Positions 11,849-55,727 are shown, numbered from the stretch's first letter. The stretch: 64,000 nt of DNA from Candidatus Veblenbacteria bacterium (GCA_030700105.1 JAUYKG010000016.1:2863-66862), one strand, 5' to 3'. Numbers and translations are program-made. The notes: generated by a model not told the origin, from the letters alone.

Positions 11849-11854
11849 GGGAGT

Positions 11855-11889
11855 GAGTATTAAGAATTCAGTATACAGTATTCAGTATG
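11855..11889 (+). repeat. Tandem AGTAT repeats upstream of the first cohesin-like gene.
   Basis: gAGTATtaagaattcAGTATacAGTATtcAGTATg. Confidence 0.55.
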
Positions 11890-13125: not shown

Positions 13126-15218
13126 TATCGTTGTCGTCATTTTTTATATCGCCGCTACGTTCGGCTGGTATTACCCCTACCTTGAGGGTAGGGGTGTGCG
13201 TTATCACTTTACTGGCAGTGTGGTTGGGCTGGGTAAGGGGTGCTGAGGCTGCCAGCTTGCACCTCTCGCCGGTAACCGGCAGTTTTGAGGTGGATGCTAC
13301 GTTCGATGTCGGCGTGTATCTAGATACCGAGGGACAGGCGGTGAACGCCGTGGCTGTAAATCTGGCCTTCCCGCCCGATAAGTTACAGCTCGTTTCACCA
13401 GTGGTGGCTGGGCAATCGATTGTGGAGGTGTGGAGTGCTCAGCCGAGGTTTTCTAACCAGGATGGTTTGGTGGAATTGGCCGGTGGTATTCCTGGCGGTA
13501 TCACCACCAGTCGCGGCCTCATTACTACCTTGCATTTCCGGGTGCGCTCCGTGGGCACGGCCTTAGTGAGGTACCAGGATTCCTCGCAGGTGCTCTTACA
13601 TGACGGCAAGGGAACCAACGCGCTCTACGATACATCGAGCGGAATTTTTGAACTTACCTTGCCAGCACCGGCCGGTCCCGAGGTGGTATCTGTTACGCAT
13701 CCTGACCAAGCCAAATGGTACCCAAGCTCCAACGTGAGTTTGGGCTGGGAAGGGGAAGCTGAGGTAGAGGGGTATAGCTACCTGTTGTCTGATAAACCTA
13801 TTGACCTGGTGGACGACATAGCAGAGGGCAAGCAGGTGTCGGTGGTGTACGAGAACGTGGCCGATGGTGTGCACTATTTCCACATTAAGAGCCTGCGCAA
13901 AGGCAAGTGGGGCGGGGTTACCCACCGCGCTATTAAGGTAGACAGCACTCCGCCGGCTGATTTTCCCATAGACATCGTGCCGGCAGCGCGCACTATTAGG
14001 CGCCAGCCTATCATTCAGTTTAGTACCACGGATTCCGGTTCCGGCCTTTCTCACTACGAGGTGAAGCTCGTACTCTTGCACTCCAATGAGGCGCAAGCGG
14101 CCGAGAATAGCTCTTTTGAATCGATTTTCGTGGAAACGCAGAGCCCATACCTGCCGCCCGAACTTAAACTGGGGAAATACGACGTTATTATACGGGCTTA
14201 CGATCAGGCTGGCAGTTTTCGTGAGGTAACACAGCGTTTAAGCATCGTGAAGGCAATTTTTACCGTGGTGGGGGAGCGGGGGCTGGATGTGCGCAACGCT
14301 TTTGTTATCCCCTGGGTGTGGGTGTGGGTAATCGGTCTGGTTTTGGTGGCGGGGGTTGCTTACCTCGCTTGGTGGGTACGGCGTTGGCATTACCGCGTTG
14401 AACAGCGCAAGCTTCATGAGGAGCTGCCTAACACCTTGCAAACGCAACTACAAGAACTGCGTGAGTACCGCAAGAAGTATGGACGACTAGCAGGCCTGGT
14501 GTTGGCTCTGCTGGCGGTCTCTTGGTTGTGGTTGGGCGCTCTGCCGGTGCAAGCTCAGGAGACACCGTTAGCACCGCCCTACATTACTACTGTGTCGCGG
14601 GATATTTCCAACGAGGACATTTTTTACCTTGGTGGTCGGACTGAGTCTGTCAATACCGAGGTTGTTATCTACCTCCAGCACCCTGCTAGCGGGCGCACGG
14701 AAGGGTTCAGTGTTACTTCTGATAAGCGCGGCGAGTGGTTTTATCGGCACCACACTTTCCTACCCAGCGGTCGGTACGTACTGTGGTCGCAGGCTCGCGT
14801 AGGCGAGCAGCTTAGCCCGCCTGGGCCGCAGGTTGAGCTTATGGTGCACAATACGGCCGTACAGTTCGGTTCATCCCGTTTATCTTACGAGGTTATCTAC
14901 TTGGGCATTATTATCCTCTTGGCCGCTCTGTTCCTGGGCCTGGTGGCGTACACGGCTTTCCACTTCGTTCATGGCCGCCGTAAGCACGCAGCGCTCATAA
15001 AAGAGATACGCGAGGCCGAGGAATCGGTGCGTCGCGGTTTCGCTGTACTGAAGCGCGATATCCAGGCCGAGCTTAATGTGGTGAGGAAGGCGAAACTATC
15101 CAAACAACTTTCCGCCGAAGAGCACGCTCGTGAGGCCGAACTTATGAAAGATTTGGACTGGGTGGAAAAGTATATCGGCAAAGAGGTGTGGGATGTGGAG
15201 CAAGCGGAACAGTCATAA
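13122..15218 (+). CDS. Polytopic membrane protein (698 aa) with an N-terminal cohesin-like domain, FN3/Ig-like domains, three TM segments and a C-terminal charged coiled-coil tail.
   Basis: ATGA overlap with the upstream gene. Cohesin-like block 'LHLSPVTGSFEVDATFDVGVYLDTEGQAVNAVAVNLAFPPDKLQLVSPVVAGQSIVEVW...LVELAGGIPGGITTSRGLITTLHFRVRSVGTALV'. TM segments 'VIPWVWVWVIGLVLVAGVAYLAWWV', 'LAGLVLALLAVSWLWLGAL' and 'GIIILLAALFLGLVAYTAF'. A C-terminal 'EIREAEESVRR...' helix follows. Confidence 0.55.
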   Translation: MISLSSFFISPLRSAGITPTLRVGVCVITLLAVWLGWVRGAEAASLHLSPVTGSFEVDATFDVGVYLDTEGQAVNAVAVNLAFPPDKLQLVSPVVAGQSIVEVWSAQPRFSNQDGLVELAGGIPGGITTSRGLITTLHFRVRSVGTALVRYQDSSQVLLHDGKGTNALYDTSSGIFELTLPAPAGPEVVSVTHPDQAKWYPSSNVSLGWEGEAEVEGYSYLLSDKPIDLVDDIAEGKQVSVVYENVADGVHYFHIKSLRKGKWGGVTHRAIKVDSTPPADFPIDIVPAARTIRRQPIIQFSTTDSGSGLSHYEVKLVLLHSNEAQAAENSSFESIFVETQSPYLPPELKLGKYDVIIRAYDQAGSFREVTQRLSIVKAIFTVVGERGLDVRNAFVIPWVWVWVIGLVLVAGVAYLAWWVRRWHYRVEQRKLHEELPNTLQTQLQELREYRKKYGRLAGLVLALLAVSWLWLGALPVQAQETPLAPPYITTVSRDISNEDIFYLGGRTESVNTEVVIYLQHPASGRTEGFSVTSDKRGEWFYRHHTFLPSGRYVLWSQARVGEQLSPPGPQVELMVHNTAVQFGSSRLSYEVIYLGIIILLAALFLGLVAYTAFHFVHGRRKHAALIKEIREAEESVRRGFAVLKRDIQAELNVVRKAKLSKQLSAEEHAREAELMKDLDWVEKYIGKEVWDVEQAEQS

Positions 15219-15395
15219 GGTAGTTATCCGTGACAAGATGTATGATTGTGCGTAGATTGGTTAAGGGTGTAAACCGCGAGACCCCGCACCGTGCCTCGGC
15301 TCTGGTGCGTGGGTGGAGCAAGCCGAGAGGCAAACCGAGTAAGTGTCGAGTGCGGGTTATTTTTGGCTAAGGTAAAACAAATTTTTTTTAGGCCA

Positions 15396-15424
15396 TTGAC
15401 GCGTAATCATCTGCGGGGTATAAT
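15396..15424 (+). promoter_or_regulatory. Consensus sigma70-type promoter of the ATP synthase operon.
   Basis: -35 TTGACG at 15396..15401, an exact 17-nt spacer, and -10 TATAAT at 15419..15424. It lies ~20 nt upstream of the atpZ-like start. Confidence 0.6.
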
Positions 15425-15443
15425 TTTTACCCGAAGTTTTACT

Positions 15444-15737
15444 ATGTCCAACCCTGAACAATCTAACGAGGAACAAAACCAGAGCACCGTGTTCAAGGCT
15501 TTGGGGCTGGCTTGGGAGCTCGGCTACACCATCGCCGTACCGTTGGTAGTACTGGCGCTGGCTGGTCGTTTGGTTGATCGCTGGCTCGGTACTTCCCCTT
15601 GGTTTTTGTTGGTGGGTGTATTACTGTCGATCGTGATTTCCACCTGGACCGTTTATCGTAAGACCAAGCTTATTATATCTGCGCCTGCGGCAGGGTCTGG
15701 TGCGAATACGGCTGAGCAAAAGAAGACCGTCTTATGA
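15444..15737 (+). CDS. atpZ: AtpZ/AtpI-like small membrane protein preceding atpB.
   Basis: 98 aa counted from the internal ATG 'MSNPEQS'; the longer ORF start at 15291 would overlap the promoter. Two TM segments 'YTIAVPLVVLALAGRLV' and 'WFLLVGVLLSIVISTW'. It sits immediately upstream of atpB. Confidence 0.5.
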   Translation: MSNPEQSNEEQNQSTVFKALGLAWELGYTIAVPLVVLALAGRLVDRWLGTSPWFLLVGVLLSIVISTWTVYRKTKLIISAPAAGSGANTAEQKKTVL

Positions 15738-16507
15738 ACATCTCTCTCGCCGCCGAGCCCATCTTCTCTATTGGGGCATTCACGGTAACTAACTCACTCT
15801 TGGTGGGGGTTCTGGTTATGCTGTTGTTGGTGGTGGTCGCTCTGGCGACTGGGCTCAGGCGTTTGCGCGAAGTGCCGCAGGGCTTGCAGAACGTTACTGA
15901 GGCGTTGGTGGAGGGGGCCTTAACGTTCATAGAGAGCGTTACTGGGAACCGCGAACAGGCGAAGCGATTTTTGCCGCTCACAGCCACTATTTTCTTCTTT
16001 GTTCTAATATCCAATTGGATAGGATTACTGCCGGGTGTTGGCACCATCGGCCTTAACGAGGTGCACGAAGGGCGTGTGGTCTTGGTGCCGTTCTTACGTT
16101 CAGCCTCGGCCGACCTCAACACCACCCTGGCCATTGCGCTCATTTCGGTGCTGGGTACGCAGCTCTTTGGTATTGTGGCGCTAGGGTTTTTTAAGCACGC
16201 CGGTAAGTATCTGAATTTTGCCAGCCTGTTTAAACACTTTAATTTTCAGAGCGTCATCCTGTTCTTCGTGGGGTTGCTGGAGCTTGTCTCCGAGGTGGCC
16301 AAAGTGGTCTCGTTCTCCTTTCGTCTCTTTGGCAATGTGTTCGCCGGTGAGGTACTCTTAATCGTGATATCCTCACTGGTGCCCTACCTGGCCCCCTTGC
16401 CGTTCTTGTTCCTGGAGATCTTCGTGGGTCTGGTACAGGCGCTGGTGTTCTCGCTCCTTACTCTGGTGTTCCTTACTATTGCCACGGCCGAGCACGCCGA
16501 ACACTAG
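15734..16507 (+). CDS. atpB: F0F1 ATP synthase subunit a.
   Basis: 257-aa polytopic protein. The C-terminal part carries 'RLFGNVFAGEVLL' and 'LPFLFLEIFVGLVQALVFSLLTLVFL' (the a-subunit arginine region). Confidence 0.9.
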   Translation: MNISLAAEPIFSIGAFTVTNSLLVGVLVMLLLVVVALATGLRRLREVPQGLQNVTEALVEGALTFIESVTGNREQAKRFLPLTATIFFFVLISNWIGLLPGVGTIGLNEVHEGRVVLVPFLRSASADLNTTLAIALISVLGTQLFGIVALGFFKHAGKYLNFASLFKHFNFQSVILFFVGLLELVSEVAKVVSFSFRLFGNVFAGEVLLIVISSLVPYLAPLPFLFLEIFVGLVQALVFSLLTLVFLTIATAEHAEH

Positions 16508-26553: not shown

Positions 26554-26946
26554 ATGACACTTCGGCAGTACCTTTCTTGGCTGGCTCTCGGCACGGGGAT
26601 TTCCTGGGGGGCGTTCGGGCTCGTGCTTTCGTACTTGAACCCGGAAACAGCTGGCAATATCGGGTTCTTGTTCTTTTATCTCTCGGTATTTTTAAGCCTC
26701 ACTGGCACGTTGACGCTCATAGGTTTTGCCTGGCGGTACTTAAGGCACCGCGATGAGGTACTTTTTCGTCATGTTTCCATTTCTTTCCGCCAAGGAGTGC
26801 TACTCGCTTTTATGGTGGTAGTGGCGCTTTGGCTGGAAGCACACGAACTTTTAACCTGGTGGAACCTCGGGCTCTTGGTGGTCGGCCTTACGCTCTTGGA
26901 ATTCTTTTGGTTGTCGGTGCGGCGGAGTGCTCCGTCGGCGATGTAA
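26554..26946 (+). CDS. Small integral membrane protein (4 TM).
   Basis: Hydrophobic segments 'LSWLALGTGISWGAFGLVLSYL', 'IGFLFFYLSVFLSLTGTLTLIGFAW', 'VLLAFMVVVALWL' and 'LGLLVVGLTLLEFFWL'. Confidence 0.5.
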   Translation: MTLRQYLSWLALGTGISWGAFGLVLSYLNPETAGNIGFLFFYLSVFLSLTGTLTLIGFAWRYLRHRDEVLFRHVSISFRQGVLLAFMVVVALWLEAHELLTWWNLGLLVVGLTLLEFFWLSVRRSAPSAM

Positions 26947-26960
26947 CTTGTCTTGTGAGT

Positions 26961-27983
26961 ATGTCGTTGAAAGAGGAGCTCGAGCAGTTGCGGCAGCGAG
27001 CACTTCATGAGCTAAAGGGTCTTAAGGATAGTAGTGGCCTGGCTGAACTGGAGGTGAAGTACTTGGGGCGCAAGGGCGAACTGGCACGCGGCTTAAAAGC
27101 GCTGCAGGATGTGGTGGCGGAGGAGCGTCCCCGTTTGGGTGAACTCGCCAACCAGGTAAAGCGCGAGGTGGAGGAAGCCTTCGCGACCATAAAGCAAAAA
27201 TTCGGCAACGGAACTCCCGCGCCGATAGATGTGACGTTGCCTGGTATTCCGCCGCTCCGTGGCCACCTGCACCCGGTGCTGGCAGTGCAGCGGGAATTAG
27301 AAGAGCTTTTTCGTTCTATGGGGTTCATGGTGCTGGACGGGCCGGAGCTCGAGAGTGAGTTCTACAACTTTGAGGCTCTGAACATTCCCGCCTGGCACCC
27401 GGCGCGGGATACGCAGGACACTTTCTATGTGAAGGGTGGCGAACCCAAGAATCGCTGGCTCTTGCGCACACATACTTCACCCGTACAGGTGCGGGCCTTG
27501 CAGGATTACGGTGCGCCTATTCGCGCGATCGTGCCTGGCAGGGTGTTCCGCTATGAAGCCACCGACGCCTCACATGAAACCACGTTTTGGCAAATGGAGG
27601 GTTTGGTGGTGGATAAGGATATTTCCGTTTCCCACCTTATCGCCACTATGAAAGCGCTCCTCACTGGTATATTCAAGCGCGAGGTGGAGGTGCGCTTACG
27701 GCCTGGCTATTTTCCTTTTGTGGAACCAGGTTTCGAGCTGGATATCAAGTGTCTGGTGTGCGGCGGCACGGGCTGCAGCGTATGTAAACACAGCGGCTGG
27801 GTGGAGCTCTTGCCCTGCGGTTTGGTTCATCCCAAGGTGCTGGAGTACGGGGGCGTGAACCCGAAGGAGTATAGCGGTTTCGCCTTCGGTTTAGGGCTGT
27901 CGCGTCTTGCCATGATGCGCTATAAGATAGATGACATTCGTTTGTTACTCTCTGGCGATTTGAGGTTCTTGGAACAGTTTTAG
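26961..27983 (+). CDS. pheS: Phenylalanine--tRNA ligase alpha subunit.
   Basis: Class II aaRS motifs 'FRYEATDASHETTFWQMEGLVVD' and 'GFAFGLGLSRLAMM'. Start taken at 'MSLKEELEQL'. Confidence 0.9.
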   Translation: MSLKEELEQLRQRALHELKGLKDSSGLAELEVKYLGRKGELARGLKALQDVVAEERPRLGELANQVKREVEEAFATIKQKFGNGTPAPIDVTLPGIPPLRGHLHPVLAVQRELEELFRSMGFMVLDGPELESEFYNFEALNIPAWHPARDTQDTFYVKGGEPKNRWLLRTHTSPVQVRALQDYGAPIRAIVPGRVFRYEATDASHETTFWQMEGLVVDKDISVSHLIATMKALLTGIFKREVEVRLRPGYFPFVEPGFELDIKCLVCGGTGCSVCKHSGWVELLPCGLVHPKVLEYGGVNPKEYSGFAFGLGLSRLAMMRYKIDDIRLLLSGDLRFLEQF

Positions 27984-27986: not shown

Positions 27987-30269
27987 ATGAAGATTTCCTA
28001 TAACATACTCAAGACTTTCGTTACTCCGCCTGCGGGCAACACGGGGCGTAGCTTGGCGGAAACACTCACCATGCGCACAGTGGAGGTGGAGAGCTACCAC
28101 GATCAGGCTGGGCGCCTGGCAGGTGTGGTGGTCGGTTTGGTTACGGCTGTACGGCCCCACCCGAACGCAGACAAGCTCAGGCTGGCCCAGGTGGGCACTG
28201 GCAAGCACAAACTTGAGGTGGTGTGCGGTGGTGTTAATTTGCAGGAAGGTATGAAGGTCGCTTTTGCCAACATCGGTACTAAGGTGCGCTGGCACGGACA
28301 GGGTGACTGGGTGACTTTGGAGCAGGTGAGCATTAGGGGGGTGGAATCAGCCGGGATGATCTGTGCAGCCGAGGAATTGGCCCTTATGGACTCCGCTGCA
28401 GTGGAGCACGGCATTATGGACCTCTCGTACCTTACTGCCAAACCAGGTACGCCCCTAGCTGAGGCGCTTGGCTTACACGACATTATACTTGAGGTTGATA
28501 ATAAATCGGTTACCCACCGGCCTGATCTGTGGGGGCACTTGGGATTGGCGCGGGAGTTGGCAGCTATTTGGCAGGTACCGTTTACGCTTCCTGAGCCGCC
28601 TACGCTCGCTGGCGGAGCCGAGGCTCGGCTTAAGGTGACTATTGAGGCGCCGGAGCACTGCCAGCGCTACCTTGGTGTAGTAGTGGCTGGCCTCAAGGTA
28701 GCCGAGAGCCCAGCCTGGCTTAAGCAGCAGCTTGTAAGTTTAGGTGTGAGGTCGATCAACAATGTGGTTGATGTTACGAACTATGTTATGCACGAGCTAG
28801 GACAGCCTTTGCACGCGTTCGACCTTGCCAGACTGGCTGGGCCAGAAATTGTGGTCCGTTTGGCCAAGCGAGGGGAAAAGCTTGTTACGCTTGATGGCTC
28901 AGAGCGCAAACTAGAGGCAGACAGTCTGGTGATCGCCGATGCCAAACACGTCCAGGCCGTAGCTGGTGTTATGGGTGGGCAGGCGAGTGAGGTGGGGAGT
29001 ACTACTACCACCATTGTGTTGGAATCAGCTACGTTCGACCCGGTGAGTGTTCGCTTAACAGCTGGCAAACTGGGTTTGCGTACGGATGCCTCTATGAGGT
29101 TTGAGAAAGGTTTGGACCCGGCTCTGGCCGAACTAGCGCTTAGGCGCGCCGTTCAACTACTGGCAGAGGTTTGTCCTGGTGCCCATGTGGTGAGCAATGT
29201 GGCAGACACATATCCCAGGCCGCTTGAGCTTGTGAAATTAAACTTAAACCTGCCCTGGTTCTGGAAGCGTCTGGGCTGCGAAATTCCACGCGCAGAAGTT
29301 GTGGGAATTTTGGAGCGTTTGGGGTTCAAGATTACGGGTAAGGGCGACGACTTGGAGGTTAAGGTTCCAAGTTGGCGCGCCACGCGGGACATCACGATAC
29401 CAGAGGACCTGATAGAGGAGGTGGCGCGCATTTACGGCTACGACAAGATTCCACTGGCTATGCCAAAATTCGACATCACGCCGCCACCAGTGGACGAGGC
29501 CCAAGCTCTGCGCTGGAAGATTCGTGATTTGTTAGTGGGTGCGGGCTGGACTGAAACGCTGTCGTACTCGTTTTCACGTTCGGGACAGAAACCTGAGCAG
29601 TCTCTCGAACTGGTGAATCCTATTGACCAGACTAGGCGGTGGTTGCGAACCAGCGTTTATGACACCCTGCACGAGCAATTTAAAACCGCCCGCCGCGCTG
29701 ACGAAGGCATGTCACTTAAGTTTTTTGAGCTTGGACGCGTATTCAGCTCACAGGTGGGAGATTGGCCAAGTCAAGTTACAGGCCAGGACAGGCTACCAGC
29801 CCAGCCATGGCACCTTGCGTTAGCAGCCTTTGACCAAAGGCGTGGCAGCCTGTCCGTCATTAGAGGAGCACTCAAATTGTTGGAAAAGTCTTTGAGCATT
29901 AAATTGCCAGATAACCCGTCGTACCATAAGTTTGGAGGCGGTGCCGTCCTAGTTGAAGTTGATCTAACTGGTATCAAGTCGGGCGAAGCACGCACACTTA
30001 TTCCTATACCCAAATATCCGAGCGTAACACGTGACGTATCTGTTGTGGTGCCAGAGGGGACTTCTTGGGAAAACATAGAAGCCGCAGTAAAAGTATCGAA
30101 ACTCATTGAGTCGGTGGAGGTATTTGACGTGTATGAGGCTAAAAGGAGCATTGCTTATCGTCTTACGTTTCGTGCACCGGATCGCACCTTGAAGTCTGAG
30201 GAAGTTGATGAGGTTATGGCGAAGATTACCAAGCTTTTACAAGATAAATTTAACGCTACTATCCGCTAG
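27987..30269 (+). CDS. pheT: Phenylalanine--tRNA ligase beta subunit.
   Basis: 760 aa immediately after pheS, with a B3/4 domain, a B5 domain and a C-terminal anticodon-binding/FDX-like domain ('VFDVYEAK...IAYRLTFRAPDRTL'). Confidence 0.85.
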   Translation: MKISYNILKTFVTPPAGNTGRSLAETLTMRTVEVESYHDQAGRLAGVVVGLVTAVRPHPNADKLRLAQVGTGKHKLEVVCGGVNLQEGMKVAFANIGTKVRWHGQGDWVTLEQVSIRGVESAGMICAAEELALMDSAAVEHGIMDLSYLTAKPGTPLAEALGLHDIILEVDNKSVTHRPDLWGHLGLARELAAIWQVPFTLPEPPTLAGGAEARLKVTIEAPEHCQRYLGVVVAGLKVAESPAWLKQQLVSLGVRSINNVVDVTNYVMHELGQPLHAFDLARLAGPEIVVRLAKRGEKLVTLDGSERKLEADSLVIADAKHVQAVAGVMGGQASEVGSTTTTIVLESATFDPVSVRLTAGKLGLRTDASMRFEKGLDPALAELALRRAVQLLAEVCPGAHVVSNVADTYPRPLELVKLNLNLPWFWKRLGCEIPRAEVVGILERLGFKITGKGDDLEVKVPSWRATRDITIPEDLIEEVARIYGYDKIPLAMPKFDITPPPVDEAQALRWKIRDLLVGAGWTETLSYSFSRSGQKPEQSLELVNPIDQTRRWLRTSVYDTLHEQFKTARRADEGMSLKFFELGRVFSSQVGDWPSQVTGQDRLPAQPWHLALAAFDQRRGSLSVIRGALKLLEKSLSIKLPDNPSYHKFGGGAVLVEVDLTGIKSGEARTLIPIPKYPSVTRDVSVVVPEGTSWENIEAAVKVSKLIESVEVFDVYEAKRSIAYRLTFRAPDRTLKSEEVDEVMAKITKLLQDKFNATIR

Positions 30270-32309
<2,040 letters not shown>

Positions 32310-32325
32310 GATACCCTTCGCACAA

Positions 32326-32370
32326 GAACCACTGCCTCCCGGATAAGCGAGGCAGTGGTTCTTTGCTACT
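32326..32370 (+). terminator. Intrinsic terminator after gyrB.
   Basis: A perfect 13-bp stem (GAACCACTGCCTC / GAGGCAGTGGTTC) with a 10-nt loop, followed by TTTGCTACTTT. Confidence 0.6.
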
Positions 32371-32410
32371 TTAGATAGAAGAGCTATCCGTTCTGTGCTA
32401 CGCCCCCCGG

Positions 32411-32421
32411 TGTGGTATAGT
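32411..32421 (+). promoter_or_regulatory. Candidate extended -10 promoter for the radical SAM gene.
   Basis: TGgTATAGT at 32413..32421 in an AT-rich spacer. An RBS AAGGAG lies 8 nt before the ATG at 32483. Confidence 0.3.
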
Positions 32422-32482
32422 GATAATAAATAGTAGAAATCAAACAATTCTTTAACAAAAACATATAGAAAGGAGTGGGTCT

Positions 32483-34444
32483 ATGAAGACTACATTCAAT
32501 AAACCACCAGGTGAGGTGGAGGAACTTGACATTACACTCATTCGTGCCACCAACTACACAGATGATGGGTATCCAATACGTACGCGCAAGGGAGTTATCC
32601 GCAGTAATACGTTGACTCAAATGGCCACTTTGGTGCGTGATTTGCCTAGGTATCCTTTTTTTAAGGATTTAAGTATTAAAGTAAATCTTATTGACGAAGC
32701 TGTTCAGCTTGTACCCCTGAAGAGGATATTAAAACGGTCTCGGGTAAAGGGCGTAAAGGTTATAGTTCTAATGGTTGGTGTGCAGACCTGCCAGTACCCA
32801 AGGGCCTTGGATATCGCAAATTGGTTTCTACCACATGGCATCCCGGTTCTTATTGGTGGTTTCCACGTGAGTGGGATGCTGAGCATGATTGGCCAAACCA
32901 AAGATCTTACGGCGGCCATGGATAAGGGTGTAATTCTCGTTGCTGGTGAGGTTGAGGGTGATAGGCTACCCACGATTATAGAAGAGGTTGTGCTCGGTAG
33001 AGCCCGAAAACTCTATAATTATTTGAACCCGACGCCGGATCTCACCGATTTGCCAGTGCCTTTACTAACTCGGGAAGATTTAAAGCATTTTGCTTCGCCT
33101 TTCAGCACCATTGATAGCGGGCGCGGCTGTGTGTACACATGTAAGTTCTGTACCATTATAAACGTGCAGGGCAAAATCATGCGATATAGGGAACCAGCAC
33201 AGATAAAGGAGTTTGTTCGTCAGAACTATCATTCTACAGGGATTAGTCATTGTTTCTTTACGGATGATAATATGGCGCGCAATCCACGCTGCCGTGAGCT
33301 TTTTGGAGAGCTGGCTGAACTACGCGAGGAAGAGGGTATTCCCTTTACTTTTATGATGCAGGCGGACTTGGCAGCCAGAAGGATTAAGCCGGGTAATTTT
33401 TTTGAGCTAGCGGCCAGAGCCGGATGTAACCAAGTCTTTTTGGGCCTTGAGACCATGAATCCGCTTAACCTGAGAGCCGAAAGTAAATACCAGAATCGGG
33501 TAGGTGATTACGCTGATTTGGTCCAGCACTGTAATTCGTTGGGTATAACCTGCCATGCGGGCTACATTATTGGTTTTGAGTTTGATACCAGGGATAGTAT
33601 CCGTGAGGACATTGAGAAGTTAAAGGGGATTGGTTTTAATTCAGCTTCCTTTTACATTATTACACCTTTACCGGGGTCCGAGGATCACCAAACTTGGTAC
33701 CGGGAAGGCAAATGGATGCACCCTGATTTCAATACTTACGATTCCAATCATGTCGCAGTTCTGCCCAAAAGCATGTCGGTAGAAGAATTAGCACAAACTC
33801 ACCAGGATGTTTGGGAGTGGTTCTATACCACCGAACATATGGCCAGTGTGCTCAAGGGTTGGCGCGAAAATAATAAACACTATTGGGGACAGTTGTTTTT
33901 TTACGCCTGGTATTTGTACGCCTCGCGAATTGAGCGACTTCATCCTATGAACTGCGGTTTCTGGACCGTGCGGCAGCGCAAGGGGCGCCGCCCAGGCTTC
34001 CCCAGAGAAGCGTTCATACCTTTCTGGTGGGGGAGGGCAGTGGCTGCTGGGCAGCGTCTGAGTGGGCTTGTGAAGCTATTCTTCCAGTTGGAAGAGGTGT
34101 GGCTCCGCAGCAGACCAGAAAGCAAGGCGGAGCAAGCTCTCCATGAATTAATGGTTAATACCAGGAAAGATTTTGCTGATTGGCGAGATGTCACGATCGG
34201 TGAGCTAGCTGCGTTATACCGTAAGTTACACGCGGACATGCCAGACGTAAGGATTCCGTCAGGTGTAAGCTTGTGGTTAAAAAAACATATTGCCTGGGCT
34301 CATTCAAGAATGCATGCTGATTATATATGGCGTCATTGGTATAAACACTTCTGGAACCCATTTAGTTGGATGGAAGTCTGGCTGTTTGAAATCATTAATG
34401 GCTCACGCTTCCTCCTTCGGTTATTAACCGAAGGAACCAGATAA
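32483..34444 (+). CDS. B12-binding-domain radical SAM protein (class B rSAM) with a W/R-rich C-terminal extension.
   Basis: N-terminal Rossmann-like cobalamin-binding region ('VKVIVLMVGVQTCQ...IPVLIGGFHVS') and an rSAM cluster 'GRGCVYTCKFC' (CxxxCxxC). A ~250-aa C-terminal extension is rich in W and R. GC content and codon usage are lower than in the neighbouring genes. Confidence 0.7.
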   Translation: MKTTFNKPPGEVEELDITLIRATNYTDDGYPIRTRKGVIRSNTLTQMATLVRDLPRYPFFKDLSIKVNLIDEAVQLVPLKRILKRSRVKGVKVIVLMVGVQTCQYPRALDIANWFLPHGIPVLIGGFHVSGMLSMIGQTKDLTAAMDKGVILVAGEVEGDRLPTIIEEVVLGRARKLYNYLNPTPDLTDLPVPLLTREDLKHFASPFSTIDSGRGCVYTCKFCTIINVQGKIMRYREPAQIKEFVRQNYHSTGISHCFFTDDNMARNPRCRELFGELAELREEEGIPFTFMMQADLAARRIKPGNFFELAARAGCNQVFLGLETMNPLNLRAESKYQNRVGDYADLVQHCNSLGITCHAGYIIGFEFDTRDSIREDIEKLKGIGFNSASFYIITPLPGSEDHQTWYREGKWMHPDFNTYDSNHVAVLPKSMSVEELAQTHQDVWEWFYTTEHMASVLKGWRENNKHYWGQLFFYAWYLYASRIERLHPMNCGFWTVRQRKGRRPGFPREAFIPFWWGRAVAAGQRLSGLVKLFFQLEEVWLRSRPESKAEQALHELMVNTRKDFADWRDVTIGELAALYRKLHADMPDVRIPSGVSLWLKKHIAWAHSRMHADYIWRHWYKHFWNPFSWMEVWLFEIINGSRFLLRLLTEGTR

Positions 34445-34450
34445 TTCAAA

Positions 34451-34492
34451 GGCCTCGTCTATGAAATTAGACGAGGCCGATTTATTGATTAT
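34451..34492 (+). terminator. Intrinsic terminator after the radical SAM gene.
   Basis: A perfect 10-bp stem (GGCCTCGTCT / AGACGAGGCC) with an 8-nt loop, followed by GATTTATTGATTATTTATT. Confidence 0.65.
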
Positions 34493-34677
34493 TTATTAAC
34501 CCTTGCCAGGGCTGGCGGGGCGTGGTAGTATAGCGTTGTCAGTCAGAAAAGGCCCCCGAGGGCCTTTTAAAAGAGGCCATTTTAAGCAACTAGTAGTTAG
34601 CCAATAGCAAGGGTTTTTAATCATTGCTTAGCTATGAAACACTAGTGGCGAGTGGCTAGGAACTAATCACTACCCTT

Positions 34678-34869
34678 ATGGCAAATCCGTTAGTTACCTA
34701 CTTCAAAGGGGCTTTTGAAGAGCTTAAGAAAGTGGTGTGGCCTACCAAGCGCGAAATCCTCCAGCACACGCTGGTGGTGGTTGGGTTGTCATTGGCTCTA
34801 GCCATTTTTTTGGGCGCCGTAGACTATCTTCTAAACATGGGACTGGAGCAGCTTTTGCTTAGTCGGTAA
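34678..34869 (+). CDS. secE: Preprotein translocase subunit SecE.
   Basis: 63 aa with 'ELKKVVWPTKREILQHTLVVVGLSLALAIFLGAVD'. It sits directly upstream of nusG. Confidence 0.85.
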   Translation: MANPLVTYFKGAFEELKKVVWPTKREILQHTLVVVGLSLALAIFLGAVDYLLNMGLEQLLLSR

Positions 34870-38536: not shown

Positions 38537-39412
38537 TTACTGGGCCCCGACAGTTTCTTCGCAATGAGCCACAGCTGACGCTACACCTGTGAGTAGCTTG
38601 ATGTTATCTTCTTTATGCTGTTCCATTCGGTTTTTGTTCAATTGGTGGGAATCCTTTTCTAACCAATCGTTTGAGATAAACGCCAGCGCCAAGACCTCCA
38701 TAGGGGGATACTGTGCGGCAACGGCGGCTTCGGTTAAGATGCTCATACCAACACAGCAAGCGCCATCTCTATGGAGAATATCTTTATCGCGTTTTCTTCC
38801 TTCCAAATCCGGTCCGCAAACCATAGCATAGGTGCCATTCTTCCACCAGCGTCGTGTTGGGTAGCTTGTTTGAGCGATCTTAATAAGATCAGGTGACAGT
38901 GCGTCTTCTGCCGAGTTGAATTCTCCGCCGAACAGCGGCCTTTTCGGTGCATACAGAGTGATAAAACCATCGATAAGGACAACGTCGCCAACTTCAGGAT
39001 GTAATCCCCCCCTAATGCCGATACTGCCAGCGGCGCAGGTCAGAATAAGTTTTTTAACCCCCATATAAGGTAGCATCTCAATTTGTAGCCTAACCATTTT
39101 AATAAGTTCAGGGTTCATTATGGTTTCATTCATGTGGAAGCGGCCATTCAAGACTAAGATTGGTTCGCCGTCAACGTAGCCAAGCTGGATTGTTCGAGCA
39201 TGGCCATCAAGGCCAGGAAGATTAGATACCTCTGGCAGAGGTAGCCAGTGGAATGGTACGGGTTCTTTTTTCGGTGGGGTATCAAAAACAATAGTATTAT
39301 TTAATCCTGTCCCAAGGACTATAGCTGTTGAAACCTCCTCTATTTTAAAGTAATTTTTTAAGTACTTGGCAGCTATTTCGGCTGCTGTGGCGGCAGATTG
39401 TTTTGTATACAT
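38537..39412 (-). CDS. Purine nucleoside / methylthioadenosine phosphorylase family protein (PNP/MTAP trimeric family).
   Basis: 291 aa with 'IVLGTGL', 'LVLNGRFHMNE' (compare the GRFH.YEG motif of PNP) and 'AFISNDW'. Confidence 0.55.
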   Translation of the reverse strand: MYTKQSAATAAEIAAKYLKNYFKIEEVSTAIVLGTGLNNTIVFDTPPKKEPVPFHWLPLPEVSNLPGLDGHARTIQLGYVDGEPILVLNGRFHMNETIMNPELIKMVRLQIEMLPYMGVKKLILTCAAGSIGIRGGLHPEVGDVVLIDGFITLYAPKRPLFGGEFNSAEDALSPDLIKIAQTSYPTRRWWKNGTYAMVCGPDLEGRKRDKDILHRDGACCVGMSILTEAAVAAQYPPMEVLALAFISNDWLEKDSHQLNKNRMEQHKEDNIKLLTGVASAVAHCEETVGAQ

Positions 39413-40425: not shown

Positions 40426-40932
40426 ATGGCATTCTCGGTGATTGCAGCGATGGACAGCAAGCGGGGTGTAGGCAAGGGAGGTGTGATACCCTGGCGGCTT
40501 AAGGGCGATTTGGAGCACTTTCGAGAAATTACGGTTGGCCAGGGTAAGAACGCGGTTATTATGGGCCGCGCCACCTGGCTCTCGTTACCGGAGAAGTTCA
40601 GGCCCTTGTCGGGGCGAGTGAATGTCGTGCTTAGCCGGGGCCCGCTTGAACTGCCAGCTGGAGTACTGCACGCCGGTTCACTCCCAGAGGCGCTTGAGCT
40701 TTTTGCGGGCCAACCTATAGAGGAAATTTTTATCATAGGCGGCGGGCAGGTGTACGCTGAGGCCATTGGGCACCCGGCTTGCAAAAAAATTTATCTTACG
40801 GAAGTGGATGGTGAGTTTGGTTGTGATACGTTCTTTCCGGAAATTCCAGCCATGTTCCAGCGTGCCAGTACATTGGAGCCTATGAGTGAAGGAGAATTTA
40901 AGTATCGGTTCGTTACCTATGAAAAGGCCTAA
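40426..40932 (+). CDS. folA: Dihydrofolate reductase.
   Basis: 'VIAAMDSKRGVGKGGVIPWRLKGDLEHFREITVG...VIMGRATWLSL' and 'IFIIGGGQVYAEA'. Confidence 0.9.
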   Translation: MAFSVIAAMDSKRGVGKGGVIPWRLKGDLEHFREITVGQGKNAVIMGRATWLSLPEKFRPLSGRVNVVLSRGPLELPAGVLHAGSLPEALELFAGQPIEEIFIIGGGQVYAEAIGHPACKKIYLTEVDGEFGCDTFFPEIPAMFQRASTLEPMSEGEFKYRFVTYEKA

Positions 40933-41605
40933 ACGCGGTACGTTCATAGTTATAGAGGGCACCGACGGTTCGGGCAAGGGCACGCAGTTCAAACTGCTGG
41001 TGGCGGCTTTACGGCGAGCGGGAAAAAAGGTGGCTACGCTGGATTTTCCACAGTACGGCAAGCCATCGGCCTATTTTATTGAACAATACCTAAACGGGAA
41101 ATACGGAAAGAACGGTGACGTTTCACCATATGAAGCTTCACTTTTTTATTCTTTTGATAGGTATGCTGCCAAGCGGCAGCTCGTGGAGTGGTTACGAGAG
41201 GGAAGGGTAGTAGTTGCGAATCGCTTCACACTTTCAAATGCGGCGCACCAGGGCGGTAAGATACAATCGGATTCAGCCCGGCGTAAGTACTGGCAGTGGC
41301 TGTTTAATTTGGAGTTTAATGTTTTAGGTTTGCCCAGGCCGGACGTTACTATTTTTCTTCATATGCCAGCGGTTACGGCACAGAAGTTGGTATTGCGTAA
41401 GGCCCCGCGCCGGTACCTTAAGCTTGGTGTAAAAAAGGATATTCACGAGGCAGATTTGAGGCATCTTAAGGCTGCGGAGAAACAGTACGTAATTCTTGCT
41501 AGGAAAGTCGGGGCGAGAACGGTTGAATGTGTGGAAAAGGGTAGACTCTTGACGTCAAAGGAGATTCATAATAGGGTTCTAAGCATAATAATAAAATTAC
41601 TATAG
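40919..41605 (+). CDS. tmk: Thymidylate kinase.
   Basis: P-loop 'FIVIEGTDGSGKGTQ'. Start taken at 'MKRPKRG', overlapping the folA end by 14 nt. Confidence 0.85.
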   Translation: MKRPKRGTFIVIEGTDGSGKGTQFKLLVAALRRAGKKVATLDFPQYGKPSAYFIEQYLNGKYGKNGDVSPYEASLFYSFDRYAAKRQLVEWLREGRVVVANRFTLSNAAHQGGKIQSDSARRKYWQWLFNLEFNVLGLPRPDVTIFLHMPAVTAQKLVLRKAPRRYLKLGVKKDIHEADLRHLKAAEKQYVILARKVGARTVECVEKGRLLTSKEIHNRVLSIIIKLL

Positions 41606-41912: not shown

Positions 41913-43370
41913 ATGGAACTAGTCCCCGTTATTGGTTTGGAAATACACGTTCAGCTTAAGACCAAGTCCAAAATGTTCTGCCCGTGCGACAACACGGGCG
42001 AGGACAAGCCTGCCAATACCACCATTTGCCCGGTGTGTATGGGGCACCCAGGCACCTTGCCGGTACCGAATGCCGAGGCTATTAGCATGGCCGTGCGGGC
42101 GGCCTTGGCACTGAATTTTAAGGTTAATACCCGCTCCAAGTTCGACCGCAAGAACTACTTTTATCCCGATTTGCCCAAGGGTTATCAAATCTCCCAGTAC
42201 GACGAGCCGTTGGCCCAAGAGGGCTACCTGGAGGTGGAGGCCAGTCAGGGGCTAAGCAGGGTTGAGCTGGAACGGCTACACTTGGAGGAGGATACGGCTA
42301 AGCTCACGCACCAAGGTAAGAAGTCTTTAGTGGATTTCAACCGTGCTGGCACGCCCTTAATGGAAATAGTTACCAAGCCAGAGATTAAAAATCCGGAAGA
42401 GGCTAAGATATTCTTGCAGGAACTCAGGCTGATTATGCGCTACGTTGGAGCCTCTGATGCAGATATGGAAAAGGGGCACTTACGGTGCGATGCCAACATA
42501 TCTTTACACCCCAAGGGTGAGGACAAGCTATACCCCAAGACCGAGATTAAGAACCTAAATTCTTTTCGGGCTGTGGAAAAGGCTTTGCAGTATGAGGTTA
42601 AGAGGCAGGGTGAATTGTGGCGTAAAGGAGAAGCGCCTGCAATTACAGCTACACGCGGCTGGGACGAGGCTAAGGGCGAAACCGTACCGCAGCGAGAAAA
42701 AGAGGCCGTGCACGATTACCGCTATTTTCCTGAGCCGGATATTCCGCCACTCGTTATAGACCAGAAAAAAGTAGAGGAGTGGCGCGCGGAACTTCCCGAA
42801 CTGCCAGCTGATAGGCGCCGGCGCTGGCAGGTAACTTACGACACCAAACCTGCCGATGCTCGGCTATTAACGGAAGACAAGGCTTTGGGCGATTTTGCCG
42901 AGCATGTGATAGTTGAATTGGCGGCTGAGGTCGAAGGCAGTTTAGGACCAACCGCTAAGCTAGCGGTGAACTGGATCGTGCACAAGCTTACTGAAGTATT
43001 GCGGGAGCGTGGCTTGGCGGTTAACCAGCTGCCGTTCACAGTGAGCCAGTTTGTGGCGTTCCTGTTGCTAGTGTCGCGTCGGCAGGTGAATTCTACGAAC
43101 GGGCAGCTTCTCTTGCGGCGTATGGTGGAAACCGGGCACGACCCCGAGGTAATTATGGCCGAGGAGGACCTGGCTCAAGCCGCTGGCGGCGAGGGCCTAG
43201 CCGAGGCGGTTACCAGGGTGGTGAACGCTCACGCTGAGCAAGTTCAGGATTATCACAAAGGAAAAACAGCCTTGCTTAAGTTCTTTGTTGGTTTGGTGAT
43301 GAAGGAGCTTAAAGGTAAGGCCGATCCTCAGGAAATAGAGCAGGAGTTCAAGAACCAGCTTGGTGCTTAG
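41913..43370 (+). CDS. gatB: Asp-tRNA(Asn)/Glu-tRNA(Gln) amidotransferase subunit B.
   Basis: 'VIGLEIHVQLKTKSKMFC' and 'DANISL...NLNSFRAVEKAL', with a C-terminal YqeY-like domain. Confidence 0.9.
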   Translation: MELVPVIGLEIHVQLKTKSKMFCPCDNTGEDKPANTTICPVCMGHPGTLPVPNAEAISMAVRAALALNFKVNTRSKFDRKNYFYPDLPKGYQISQYDEPLAQEGYLEVEASQGLSRVELERLHLEEDTAKLTHQGKKSLVDFNRAGTPLMEIVTKPEIKNPEEAKIFLQELRLIMRYVGASDADMEKGHLRCDANISLHPKGEDKLYPKTEIKNLNSFRAVEKALQYEVKRQGELWRKGEAPAITATRGWDEAKGETVPQREKEAVHDYRYFPEPDIPPLVIDQKKVEEWRAELPELPADRRRRWQVTYDTKPADARLLTEDKALGDFAEHVIVELAAEVEGSLGPTAKLAVNWIVHKLTEVLRERGLAVNQLPFTVSQFVAFLLLVSRRQVNSTNGQLLLRRMVETGHDPEVIMAEEDLAQAAGGEGLAEAVTRVVNAHAEQVQDYHKGKTALLKFFVGLVMKELKGKADPQEIEQEFKNQLGA

Positions 43371-44322
43371 CTTGTTTAAGCCAGGTTCGGGTAAGTGCGA
43401 TGGCTGGGGGTGAACTGTTTATCCAGTGCACACTGGGTAAGCGTTTAAACCAGGTTACTTGCCGCTTGGCATATTGCCAGGTGTGGGAGATAATTTGTTG
43501 TTCGGCTTCGATACGGCTTATTGAGCCACTGAGAAAGGCAGATACTTCGCGGTAACCAATTGATTGGAGTAGGGGAGAGTGTGGGAATTTTTTTTTAAGA
43601 TAGCGCACCTCTTGTGCCAGGCCTTGGTTGAACATTTTTTTGGTGCGCCTTGTAATATTACGGCGTAGAGTTGCTTTACTTGGTGCCAGGCCTAAGATGA
43701 GCGTGTTGGGCCTTGGTTGGTGCTGCTGAGCTTGGGTAAAGGAACTACCGGTGCTCATAACGTGTTCCAGAGCGCGGATGAGGCGCCGGCGGTTCGCACG
43801 GTCAATTACGCGCCAGGTAGCGGGGTCTGCCTGTTTAAGCTTTTTTTGCAACGCAGCGGTGCTAAGTCGGTCCAACGAAGCTCGCAGTTTTAGGTTTGGT
43901 TTGCCTGGGGGAAAGCGATAGCCCTCTACCACTGCGGACACGTACAGCATTGTGCCGCCAACTAGAATTGGCAACTGGCCAATAGCAAATAGCTTAGAAC
44001 AGAGTTTGTTTACCTCTGCCTGAAACCGTACCGCTGAATATTGTTTGTTGGGCGAGAGTGTGTTAATAAAAAAGTGTGGTACCCCTTGCACAACATAAAG
44101 CTTTTTCACTCTTAAAACCTCTTTCCGTTTGCCAGTGGCTATATGCCAGTGGCCATTTGGCTGGTTAGTGCCGATTTTGGCGTGCCGGTACATCTGCTGA
44201 GAATCAGCCGAAATCACCGCACCATCCAGCTTTTTGGCTAGCTTAAGCGCCAGGGCGCTTTTGCCACTGGTAGTAGGGCCGATTATTGCTATAAGTGGGG
44301 GGTTGACAGAACTATAATTCAC
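43348..44322 (-). CDS. miaA: tRNA dimethylallyltransferase.
   Basis: P-loop 'IAIIGPTTSGKSALAL' and 'AVISADSQQMYRHAKIGTNQP'. Confidence 0.85.
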   Translation of the reverse strand: MNYSSVNPPLIAIIGPTTSGKSALALKLAKKLDGAVISADSQQMYRHAKIGTNQPNGHWHIATGKRKEVLRVKKLYVVQGVPHFFINTLSPNKQYSAVRFQAEVNKLCSKLFAIGQLPILVGGTMLYVSAVVEGYRFPPGKPNLKLRASLDRLSTAALQKKLKQADPATWRVIDRANRRRLIRALEHVMSTGSSFTQAQQHQPRPNTLILGLAPSKATLRRNITRRTKKMFNQGLAQEVRYLKKKFPHSPLLQSIGYREVSAFLSGSISRIEAEQQIISHTWQYAKRQVTWFKRLPSVHWINSSPPAIALTRTWLKQAKHQAGS

Positions 44323-44407: not shown

Positions 44408-44794
44408 ATGAATAAAAAAACAAGTATCCTTTTGGTTGATAGTGAGGAATGCATTAGATCAGTGTATTCTGAGCTGTTGAAAGACGCCGGCTTTGAGGTT
44501 CAAACTGCGGTCAGCGGTAGAGATGTTCTACATAATTTTACTGAGCCATACCCTGATATGGTAATAACCGATGTTATTAATCCGGATATGAATGGTCTCT
44601 ACTTTGCTGGAGCACTTAGAAAGCTGAGGTATACAGGATTAATAATTATTTTTTCAGGGGAAGAAAAAGAAGAGCTCGTTGATTTGAGCAAAAAGCTAGG
44701 CATTAACGTTAGCGCAGTCTTTGAAAAGACTGCAGATATCAATAAAATGATAAAAGAAATTGTAAACTTGGCGCAGGTAGAACAACCTGCTTAA
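44408..44794 (+). CDS. Single-domain response regulator (CheY-like receiver), orphan.
   Basis: 128 aa with 'ILLVDSEE', the phospho-acceptor region 'MVITDVINPDMNG', and 'IIIFSGEE'. No output domain and no adjacent histidine kinase. GC content is much lower than in the neighbouring genes. Confidence 0.65.
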   Translation: MNKKTSILLVDSEECIRSVYSELLKDAGFEVQTAVSGRDVLHNFTEPYPDMVITDVINPDMNGLYFAGALRKLRYTGLIIIFSGEEKEELVDLSKKLGINVSAVFEKTADINKMIKEIVNLAQVEQPA

Positions 44795-55439: not shown

Positions 55440-55727
55440 TTAGTTTATGGGTTGGGTAAATATAGTTTTTTTAGTGTTAGTCTGGCCGTTAGCCAGCTCC
55501 CATGAGTTCTTACTGGTAATTATTATCTCACCATTAGTCGTAGAGAGTTTAACTGCAGGTTCACCCCCGTTAAGTATTAGTTCCAGGCTGATGATTTCAA
55601 CAGCCATTTTTTGGTGGCAGTTCTGCAAAATTGCCCGAAGGGGAAAGTTTTCGACATTTTGTCCGTACTCTTTCACCACATATTCCCACTGACTATAGAC
55701 ATCCGCAAACATATCTAGCTTTTTCAT
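55440..55727 (-). CDS. Hypothetical small protein (95 aa, low GC).
   Basis: The ORF has an AT-rich upstream region. No recognisable motif. Confidence 0.35.
   Translation of the reverse strand: MKKLDMFADVYSQWEYVVKEYGQNVENFPLRAILQNCHQKMAVEIISLELILNGGEPAVKLSTTNGEIIITSKNSWELANGQTNTKKTIFTQPIN

Follow-up and report, generated by a model that had tools for sequence, protein, structure and literature searches.

The stretch of DNA analyzed here, termed the window throughout, comprises 64,000 nucleotides from a Candidatus Veblenbacteria bacterium (GCA_030700105.1 JAUYKG010000016.1:2863-66862), a member of the Patescibacteria or candidate phyla radiation (CPR). Between gyrB and secE, the window carries one intact gene for a radical S-adenosylmethionine (SAM) protein of 653 amino acids (aa), bracketed by hairpins and equipped with its own ribosome-binding site. 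The arrangement is best explained, and we consider this likely, as a single-gene accessory cassette that encodes an orphan radical SAM enzyme and derives from an old transfer between the Fibrobacteres-Chlorobi-Bacteroidetes (FCB) group and the CPR. The features of the locus, with coordinates counted from the first nucleotide of the window, are as follows.

32324-32363 (+): hairpin after the gyrB stop, 15-bp stem, terminator-like; left edge of the variable slot
32413-32421 (+): extended -10-like sequence TGgTATAGT, read from the sequence; putative promoter of the radical SAM gene
32470-32475 (+): Shine-Dalgarno sequence AAGGAG, 7 nt ahead of the ATG
32483..34444 (+): radical SAM coding sequence, ATG start, 653 aa, intact
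32522..33022 (+): N-terminal Rossmann-type beta/alpha domain, approximately residues 14-180, cobalamin-binding-like
33101..33658 (+): radical SAM partial TIM barrel, approximately residues 207-392, from the PF04055 and fold matches
33779..34441 (+): C-terminal all-helical basic Trp/Arg-rich domain, residues 433-653, family-specific
34451-34478 (+): hairpin 6 nt past the radical SAM stop, 11-bp stem and 6-nt loop, terminator-like
34503-34575 (+): secE promoter and leader hairpin module, outside the radical SAM cassette; right edge of the slot

Signals flanking the radical SAM gene

The ribosome-binding site had been recognized in an initial annotation of the window and is borne out here, with AGGAG found at the same position in the orthologs of three related lineages (L001, L003, and L090, introduced below). 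The same annotation had proposed a promoter for the gene. The TGgTATAGT sequence is indeed present, but no -35 element matches it and it was not itself called by a consensus promoter scan, which returned 6 sites against 5.9 in shuffled sequences and thus no excess; a promoter at this position is plausible but unproven.

Terminators had also been placed on either side of the gene, one after gyrB with a perfect 13-bp stem (32326..32370) and one after its own stop with a 10-bp stem (34451..34492). Both hairpins are strongly non-random, although their stems and limits differ slightly from those first given and their U-tracts are imperfect. The hairpin on the gyrB side has a folding energy of -32.4 kcal/mol (z = -6.16, with 0/200 shuffles folding equally well), is followed by a weak U-tract (UUUGCUACUUU), and is not conserved in sequence among the relatives. 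The hairpin past the radical SAM stop is of similar standing (z = -6.38), has an interrupted U-rich tail, and can be read as a terminator on the minus strand too.

The right border of the insert, at about 34500, is marked by the conserved secE promoter and leader module. This module consists of a promoter (TTGCCA-17-TAGTAT, with TG) and a hairpin at 34547-34570 (AAAAGGCCC-CCGA-GGGCCTTTT, then AAAAGA) that is not a terminator of the radical SAM cassette. The same module lies upstream of secE in four relatives, including the one with an empty slot, at approximately L089:13870-13935, L090:12020-12075, L093:9390-9450 (empty slot), and L094:14440-14500. In all five lineages compared, window included, UUUUAAAAGA trails the leader hairpin; the exact core spans 13-15 nt, reading GGCCTTTTAAAAGA in three lineages and AAAAAA in two, and the surrounding intergenic DNA is unalignable. 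The element matches no Rfam family; in appearance it is an attenuator or terminator belonging to the 5' leader of secE-nusG-rplKA. In the window, some 85 additional nucleotides (34585-34670) separate the leader hairpin from the start of secE; the relatives do not have them, secE starting 20-30 nt past the hairpin in them.

The gyrB-secE slot in related lineages

The backbone into which the radical SAM gene is set is formed by the following genes of the window.

26829-27983: pheS, upstream of the radical SAM gene
27987-30269: pheT, upstream of the radical SAM gene
30273-32309: gyrB, directly upstream of the radical SAM gene
34678-34869: secE, downstream of the radical SAM gene, followed by nusG, rplK, and rplA

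Relatives were defined as the contigs carrying the closest gyrB proteins, which represent eight lineages. The order pheS-pheT-gyrB is kept in all eight, preceded by a UvrD-type helicase gene and DciA (in L094, by DciA and no helicase), and secE-nusG-rplK-rplA(-dcd...) follows beyond the gap wherever the retrieved DNA extends that far. The content of the gap itself is variable, as listed below with gyrB identities relative to the window.

L090 and L092, gyrB 85%: same radical SAM family, then secE
L003, gyrB 83%: same radical SAM family; the contig ends after it
L001, gyrB 81%: same radical SAM family, then a 313-aa open reading frame (ORF) and a diversity-generating retroelement (bAvd, reverse transcriptase)
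L089, gyrB 86%: 927-aa ORF and a different, 488-aa B12-binding/DUF4070 radical SAM protein (12315-13781), directly before secE
L091, gyrB 83%: 145-aa ORF, 1188-aa LCAT-like protein, and SPASM-type radical SAM protein of the peptide-maturase kind (14599-15963)
L094, gyrB 79%: 1759-aa ORF
L093, gyrB 80%: empty; 421 bp, 29% GC, no ORF

The same radical SAM family is thus present in four or five lineages, in copies 55-72% identical to one another, and three different radical SAM families are found downstream of gyrB in one clade (in L091, secE was not reached within 7 kb). A tblastn search of the empty and alternative slots returned no remnants of the family, which fits loss as well as never having been present. 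Within the window's slot, Pfam searches found no mobility gene (integrase or transposase), and blastn between the slot flanks found no direct repeat around the insert; the strongest common element in the search of the flanks for att-like repeats was the conserved secE leader, and the other matches were exact words of 12-18 nt in the relatives' slot DNA that do not flank the window's insert.

The initial annotation had suggested horizontal acquisition of the gene. This is upheld by the empty site of L093, by the other cargo carried in relatives, and by the disparity between the named homologs of the protein, which are from Ignavibacteria and Bacteroidota, and gyrB, which is of Patescibacteria type. 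The view of the radical SAM gene as an accessory insert of horizontal origin, placed among conserved housekeeping genes, is therefore supported. The further suggestion of a recent acquisition is not supported by the comparison, since the order gyrB-radical SAM-secE, which the annotation itself had named as an argument against it, recurs in L090 and L092 and gyrB-radical SAM in L001 and L003.

Two additional features of the relatives are recorded here. In L001, positions 10864-13723 carry the 313-aa ORF and the genes for a bAvd accessory protein and reverse transcriptase, followed by an extracytoplasmic function (ECF) sigma factor gene, and no secE was found within 8 kb downstream. In L094, a GIY-YIG endonuclease gene (14709-15011) lies between secE and nusG, which suggests a homing-type insertion within the operon.

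Domain architecture of the protein

Membership of the radical SAM superfamily is established by the cysteine motif, by a PF04055 match above the gathering score, and by the TIM-barrel fold. The motif, C216-V-Y-T-C220-K-F-C223 (nt 33128-33151), has the CxxxCxxC spacing for [4Fe-4S] ligation, and its three cysteines are invariant across 53 aligned family members, in which C315 and C491 are the sole other invariant cysteines. Radical_SAM (PF04055) is the only Pfam match to the whole protein; it spans residues 213-379 and scores 47.4 bits (cutoff 29.5, E = 3e-12). The alignment of 53 has a mean column identity of 72% and more than 150 invariant columns, C-terminal domain included. An AlphaFold2 model built on these 53 homologs (predicted local distance difference test score 78.9, predicted template modeling score 0.80) describes a three-part protein, and the initial description as a 653-aa protein of class-B architecture with a CVYTCKFC cluster is accurate.

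The N-terminal domain contains the invariant motifs TNYTDDGYP (23-31), IRSNTL (39-44), and GGFHV (125-129). Structures matching the model include AprD4 (Z 23.2, 383 residues), which heads the PDB matches by structure as well as by sequence, TsrM (Z 20.5, 414 residues), CysS (Z 20.0, 424 residues), MgmA/QCMT (Z 19.4, 353 residues), RimO (Z 19.2, 356 residues), MiaB (Z 17.6, 364 residues), and TokK (Z 16.5, 413 residues). At the level of the predicted fold, the two-domain class-B architecture is thereby confirmed: the model sets the Rossmann domain against the barrel in the manner of TsrM, TokK, and QCMT.

The third part is peculiar to the family. The long Trp/Arg-rich C-terminal extension that had been pointed out in the initial annotation is real and conserved: residues 441-653 contain 17 Trp (8%) and 21 Arg, residues 431-653 have a pI of 9.7 and a net charge of +8.5, and 10 of the 11 Trp that are invariant in the family fall in this domain. 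With these 10 Trp invariant, the extension is a true domain and not a tail. On the Wimley-White interfacial scale, two 19-mers (residues 465-483 and 616-634) come to about -8 kcal/mol each, and no transmembrane helix was found in the region. No solved structural analog of the domain was found, and Pfam searches with the isolated N- and C-terminal segments (E <= 10) gave only a spurious 15-bit Mycothiol-S-transferase match.

The designation of the N-terminal domain as cobalamin-binding needs to be qualified. Class-B enzymes bind cobalamin base-off and have no defining sequence motif, and AprD4, which binds no cobalamin, demonstrates that the fold can occur without it (PMC12931638). DUF4070 (PF13282) was undetected in the whole protein and in the isolated C-terminal region (E <= 10), and the precomputed Pfam annotation of 120 homologs lists PF04055 alone. 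The family profile nevertheless aligns with the 488-aa protein of L089 at an hhalign probability of 99.5% over residues 43-451, and since that protein is positive for PF02310, PF04055, and PF13282 in the precomputed Pfam annotation, the N-terminal domain is tied to bona fide B12-binding domains. Alignments to NCBIfam models that enter the N-terminal domain are likewise to B12-type families (TIGR04013, residues 94-251; TIGR04072, residues 121-384). "B12-binding" is accordingly used here in the sense of a B12-binding-like fold, as suggested by fold and profile comparison, and a dependence of the enzyme on B12 is considered only slightly more probable than not.

Family and genomic context

A search of 5.8 billion proteins returned more than 7,700 matches, of which the best 120 provided the names and taxonomy. 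The best non-self matches are 62-69% identical over 98% of the length (about 655-685 aa), and every named non-self match among the best 120 is from Ignavibacteria, Ignavibacteriae, or Bacteroidota (62-66% identical). In a library clustered at 50% identity, one representative (62%) stands for the entire tight family; beyond it come relatives of about 42% identity whose matches are limited to residues 12-550, and 245 clusters lie under E = 1e-30. At 33-41% identity, more remote homologs turn up in an FCB-group metagenome-assembled genome (MAG; L005, 40%), on Rhizobiales megaplasmids, and on IMG/VR contigs, and the Phyllobacterium/Rhizobium homolog is 37-40% identical. By curated thresholds the family is a tight, uncharacterized orphan as far as sequence comparison goes. 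No literature on it was found, the Veblenbacteria literature that was located merely names the taxon, and searches on Patescibacteria with cobalamin and on B12-binding with Ignavibacteria found nothing relevant.

The gene had been described as isolated, and it is so throughout. Pfam searches found no pathway genes accompanying it in the 64 kb, its flanks contain no small ORF with an ATG and a ribosome-binding site, and it stands alone in the FCB-type loci L004, L006, and L007 and on a Phyllobacterium plasmid. A shared target gene beside the homologs, which the initial annotation had proposed to look for, is not seen in about 80 metagenomic loci: any one neighbor family recurs in at most 11 of them, a generic response regulator most often. 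Because the gene is stand-alone throughout the family, its substrate is probably a common cell constituent and not a pathway intermediate. Seven IMG/VR contigs classified as viral (L095-L101) encode relatives 33-41% identical over at most residues 12-529, and a tblastn search of a phage collection gave no match to the protein.

Base composition and codon usage

The radical SAM gene had been noted as lower in GC than its neighbors, which is correct as an observation. It has a GC content of 0.468 and a third-position GC content (GC3) of 0.488, against a GC3 of 0.592 +/- 0.064 for the 40 other window genes of at least 150 aa (z = -1.6) and of 0.615 +/- 0.041 for the 13 other genes of at least 400 aa (z = -3.1), making it the lowest of the 14 long genes. 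A GC trough lies over the gene, with a sharp left edge at the gyrB stop. Its Karlin codon bias, however, is no outlier (0.272 against 0.249 +/- 0.037 for long genes), and some housekeeping genes of the window are similarly poor in GC3 (PNP-family, 0.435; miaA, 0.495; tmk, 0.496). The orthologs of the relatives compare with their own surroundings as follows.

L001: radical SAM gene GC3 0.763; flanking genes 0.60-0.68
L003: radical SAM gene GC3 0.687; flanking genes 0.69-0.74
L090: radical SAM gene GC3 0.544; gyrB 0.513

In overall GC, gene and host stand at 0.468 and 0.53 in the window, 0.595 and 0.53 in L001, 0.505 and 0.458 in L090, and 0.563 and 0.565 in L003. Because the orthologs are not GC-poor relative to their own flanks, those of L001 and L090 even being the richer, the low GC is not a shared donor signature. 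It is real but peculiar to the window copy and constitutes weak evidence of foreign origin, and the use of composition as proof of acquisition is not supported. Base composition shifts quickly in this clade, which limits composition-based tests of horizontal gene transfer (HGT); in relatives with 79-86% gyrB identity (L001, L003, and L089-L094), the loci examined have GC contents anywhere between about 38% and 57%.

The GC landscape of the window as a whole is patchy, and low values are not confined to obviously foreign genes. Seven other genes with a GC equal to, below, or just above that of the radical SAM gene lie at 38537-39412(-), 40886-41605(+), 43348-44322(-), 44408-44794(+), 55440-55727(-), 58248-58934(+), and 61984-62310(+); these are the PNP-family gene, tmk, miaA, a response-regulator receiver (GC 0.375), an ICMT-like membrane protein gene, and two small ORFs without Pfam matches.

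Age, direction, and route of transfer

The loci of family members P0003, P0004, P0005, and others were placed by flanking-gene identity, and P0001-P0004 correspond to the window, L001, L003, and one short contig. Between the window and L001/L003, amino-acid identities are as follows.

gyrB: 81-83%
pheS: 77-80%
pheT: 55-61%
radical SAM protein: 67-68%

Within the CPR clade, the radical SAM protein diverges faster than gyrB, and the L090 copy is more distant still, with 55% identity to the window protein and 58% to its L001 and L003 counterparts. When the L090 protein was used as the query, the nearest match was at 68% and FCB sequences were at no more than 65%. The nearest FCB sequences are 62-68% identical to the CPR copies, with the nearest Ignavibacteria/Bacteroidota sequence about 35% diverged, whereas the named gyrB matches among the best 120 (at least 70% identity) are all of Patescibacteria type. 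Since the radical SAM protein is equally similar to Ignavibacteria/Bacteroidota and CPR orthologs while gyrB is of Patescibacteria type, these sequence comparisons support a transfer between phyla, and an old rather than a recent one. This agrees with published surveys of Patescibacteria, in which the principal donors from outside the CPR include Bacteroidota, most detected transfers are not recent, and most detected HGT is within the group (PMC12455944).

In neighbor-joining trees, P0001-P0004 form one clade with bootstrap values of 69-91%. For the backbone, the eight lineages give a star-like tree (window with L003, 58%; window with L089 and L090, 40%), and the carriers of the radical SAM gene are spread over three of its sub-clades, L093 and L094 falling outside these. 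Most simply, the gene would have entered once, long ago, and have been lost or replaced in L089 and L091, with long-branch effects accounting for L090. The gene would have moved between the FCB group and the CPR clade, most likely from FCB to CPR, before the divergence of the sampled CPR lineages, and would thereafter have been inherited, lost, or replaced in the slot.

Proposed function and alternative explanations

The cassette, with its own ribosome-binding site and probable promoter and terminator, occupies the variable slot between gyrB and secE-nusG-rplK-rplA and would supply a free-standing enzyme. By analogy with the superfamily, a [4Fe-4S] cluster on C216, C220, and C223 in the barrel would cleave SAM reductively to give a 5'-deoxyadenosyl radical, which would abstract hydrogen from a substrate; the latter would lie where the barrel faces the Rossmann domain. 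The N-terminal Rossmann domain, of the class-B type that holds base-off cobalamin, would face the barrel, and the 220-residue basic Trp-rich helical domain, private to the family, would most likely serve as a substrate-binding cap. With the help of cobalamin, the enzyme might C-methylate a substrate that is hydrophobic or lies at the membrane interface, or it might carry out another radical rearrangement of such a substrate; this is a guess, made because the interfacial helices are aromatic and basic and because the top curated matches include enzymes of lipids and tetrapyrroles. No particular substrate class is considered likely.

Several observations weigh against this account. As regards cobalamin, PF02310 (B12-binding) is absent from the whole protein at E <= 0.01 and from residues 1-211 at E <= 10, the best PDB match, AprD4, is a cobalamin-free enzyme, and the 64-kb window contains neither a cobalamin transporter gene nor any Rfam family, and hence no cobalamin riboswitch; the cobalamin-binding Rossmann region claimed initially is borne out at the level of fold and profile. 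As regards the substrate, the guess comes from composition and hydrophobicity only, and a basic Trp/Arg-rich domain could equally bind RNA. As regards the transfer, outgroup-rooted neighbor-joining places the CPR copies at the base of the tight family and joins L090/L092 to the other CPR copies in 0/100 bootstraps, a placement for which long-branch attraction, two separate acquisitions, or a CPR-to-FCB transfer could each account. Finally, GC3 is low in the window copy only (0.488; orthologs, 0.54-0.76), which simple vertical descent does not explain.

The reading first proposed for the gene, that a low-GC cassette was recently acquired by this single genome from a donor of lower GC, draws on the sharp-edged GC trough coincident with the cassette, the lowest GC3 among the 14 long genes, the bracketing hairpins, and a slot that is demonstrably variable. 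It is the least credible of those considered here: orthologs occupy the same slot in L090, L092, L003, and L001, no non-self database sequence among the best matches exceeds 69% identity, codon bias is ordinary, several housekeeping genes are equally or almost equally poor in GC3, and integrase, transposase, and direct repeat are all missing from the slot. A related proposal retains the old entry and adds that homologous recombination in the conserved gyrB and secE flanks later brought in the window copy from another clade member, one of lower GC. The failure of gene GC to track host GC in the window, L001, L090, and L003 would be accommodated in this way, as would the fact that the window and L090 share 85% of gyrB and 55% of the radical SAM protein, and most HGT detected in Patescibacteria is within the group (PMC12455944); yet the databases hold no closer CPR donor (best 69%), the star-like backbone makes any incongruence weak, and unequal rates could mimic it, such that exchange within the clade is regarded as distinctly unlikely. 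That the gene is native to the CPR clade and the FCB-group copies are derived from it is very unlikely, despite an outgroup-rooted tree in which L090/L092 and then P0001-P0004 with P0122 fall below the entire Ignavibacteria/Bacteroidota cluster. The CPR branches are the longest, and simple-distance neighbor-joining is prone to long-branch attraction to the outgroup; P0001 stands apart from the other CPR copies in 31/100 replicates of the first tree, the group then spanning the ingroup. Moreover, the gene is confined in CPR to one variable slot with an empty state, whereas the FCB group has thousands of variants, and the sources of relatives at 33-42% identity include an FCB-group MAG and Rhizobiales plasmids.

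With regard to the enzyme, a cobalamin-independent protein of AprD4 type, in which the Rossmann domain is structural and the reaction is a dehydration or rearrangement and not a methylation, is somewhat unlikely. The structural ranking points toward it, but the NCBIfam AprD4 model scores 30 bits against 500, the N-domain alignments go to B12-type families and to a PF02310-positive protein, and TsrM, CysS, and MgmA are close behind AprD4 in Z, with TsrM and CysS aligning more residues. The basic C-terminal domain could instead be a macromolecule-binding module of an RNA- or protein-modifying enzyme with a ribosomal or translational target. This is unlikely, in that there is no TRAM or other known RNA-binding fold, the N-terminal domain has no conserved cysteines for the second cluster of a methylthiotransferase, and the adjacency to secE and rplK is unconserved outside the clade, the slot also carrying unrelated cargo. 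The most far-reaching interpretation is that the gyrB-secE gap is a recombination hot spot by which this episymbiotic CPR clade samples radical SAM enzymes time and again from neighboring or host bacteria, and that the window enzyme is the founding member of a cobalamin-using family whose Trp-rich interfacial domain remodels a scavenged lipid or other host-derived hydrophobic molecule. We hold this to be a long shot; if it were true, the Ignavibacteria-type affinity would point to the host lineage of Veblenbacteria-type organisms.

The single-gene accessory cassette of old FCB-CPR origin remains the preferred explanation. What stands out is the family as a lead for enzyme discovery, with thousands of highly conserved stand-alone copies in Ignavibacteria and Bacteroidota, and its retention in tiny CPR genomes, which rarely keep dispensable genes, adds to this interest. 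Definition of the substrate would add a reaction to the poorly charted class-B space and might reveal a modification of a common cell component. The slot, for its part, shows cleanly and down to the base pair how one position of a streamlined CPR genome can vary, its right edge being set by the conserved secE promoter and leader module. The comparative result is in line with known gene flow from Bacteroidota to Patescibacteria (PMC12455944); it confirms current views, overturns nothing, and will not surprise the specialist.

Other genes of the window

The remainder of the 64 kb is of housekeeping character. It includes an ATP synthase operon and a UvrD/AddA-type helicase-nuclease with DciA, as well as dcd, dut, thyA, folA, tmk, gatB, miaA, thrS, dnaE, ftsW, rplY (L25), prmC, prfA, rpmE, tsf, pyrH, and gap. 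ARAGORN found no tRNA gene in the window. At its left end is an ORF of 2278 aa (18-6854, +).

Comparison with known systems

When compared with NCBIfam, the protein matched 16 families, nearly all of class-B types and every one far under its curated cutoff. The best score was to HpnJ (TIGR03471; 62.1 bits against 577.6), followed among others by PhpK (55 bits against 600) and the ladderane-lipid radical SAM family (45 bits against 360); none of the HpnJ, BchE, PhpK, HpnR, ladderane, KedN5, ApyD, BzaD, and QCMT equivalogs reaches its cutoff, and 10 distant relatives of the protein likewise score far below the cutoffs. The YgiQ/UPF0313 label that JGI attaches to many homologs is not substantiated (TIGR03904, 17.7 bits against 462, residues 209-245 only). 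A methylthiotransferase of MiaB/RimO type is rejected, as the N-terminal domain has one cysteine, C103, which is unconserved (Asn in most members), and there is no TRAM match; likeness to these enzymes is at the level of fold only. A maturase of ribosomally synthesized and post-translationally modified peptides is also rejected, there being no precursor-type small ORF in the flanks and no conserved neighbor in about 80 loci, as is a role in anti-phage defense, with no PADLOC family matched at E <= 0.01 and only weak matches given by the other radical SAM proteins of the slot.

Among the closest known systems are the class-B class I enzymes TsrM, TokK, CysS, QCMT/MgmA, and OxsB. AprD4, a radical SAM 1,2-diol dehydratase (PDB 6fd2), is 18% identical to the window protein; it has 454-457 aa, lacks the large C-terminal domain, and is encoded in an aminoglycoside gene cluster, whereas the neighbors here are housekeeping genes. 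Membership of the AprD4 family (NF033070) is excluded by a score of 30.3 bits against a cutoff of 500, with the core alone aligned and no aminoglycoside cluster present. The HpnJ, BchE, PhpK, HpnR, and ladderane families (TIGR03471, TIGR02026, TIGR04479, TIGR04367, and TIGR04072) provide the top curated scores of 38-62 bits, and several enzymes of these types act on lipids or tetrapyrroles; unlike the members of those five families, the window protein scores about a tenth of the cutoffs (360-650 bits), aligns mainly over the core, and has no pathway neighbors. The B12-binding/Radical_SAM/DUF4070 protein of L089 has the same superfamily architecture and occupies the same slot just before secE, but it is 22-25% identical to the window protein and its DUF4070 tail does not align with the C-terminal domain, the alignment ending at residue 451.

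As a genomic arrangement, the cassette resembles the genomic islets described in Patescibacteria (PMC12455944) in being an accessory gene in a streamlined genome, of likely Bacteroidota-group origin and old transfer. It differs from them in that the empty site fixes its position to about 200 bp, in that the slot is seen with at least five different contents, three of them different radical SAM families, and in that the window's insert has no mobility gene.

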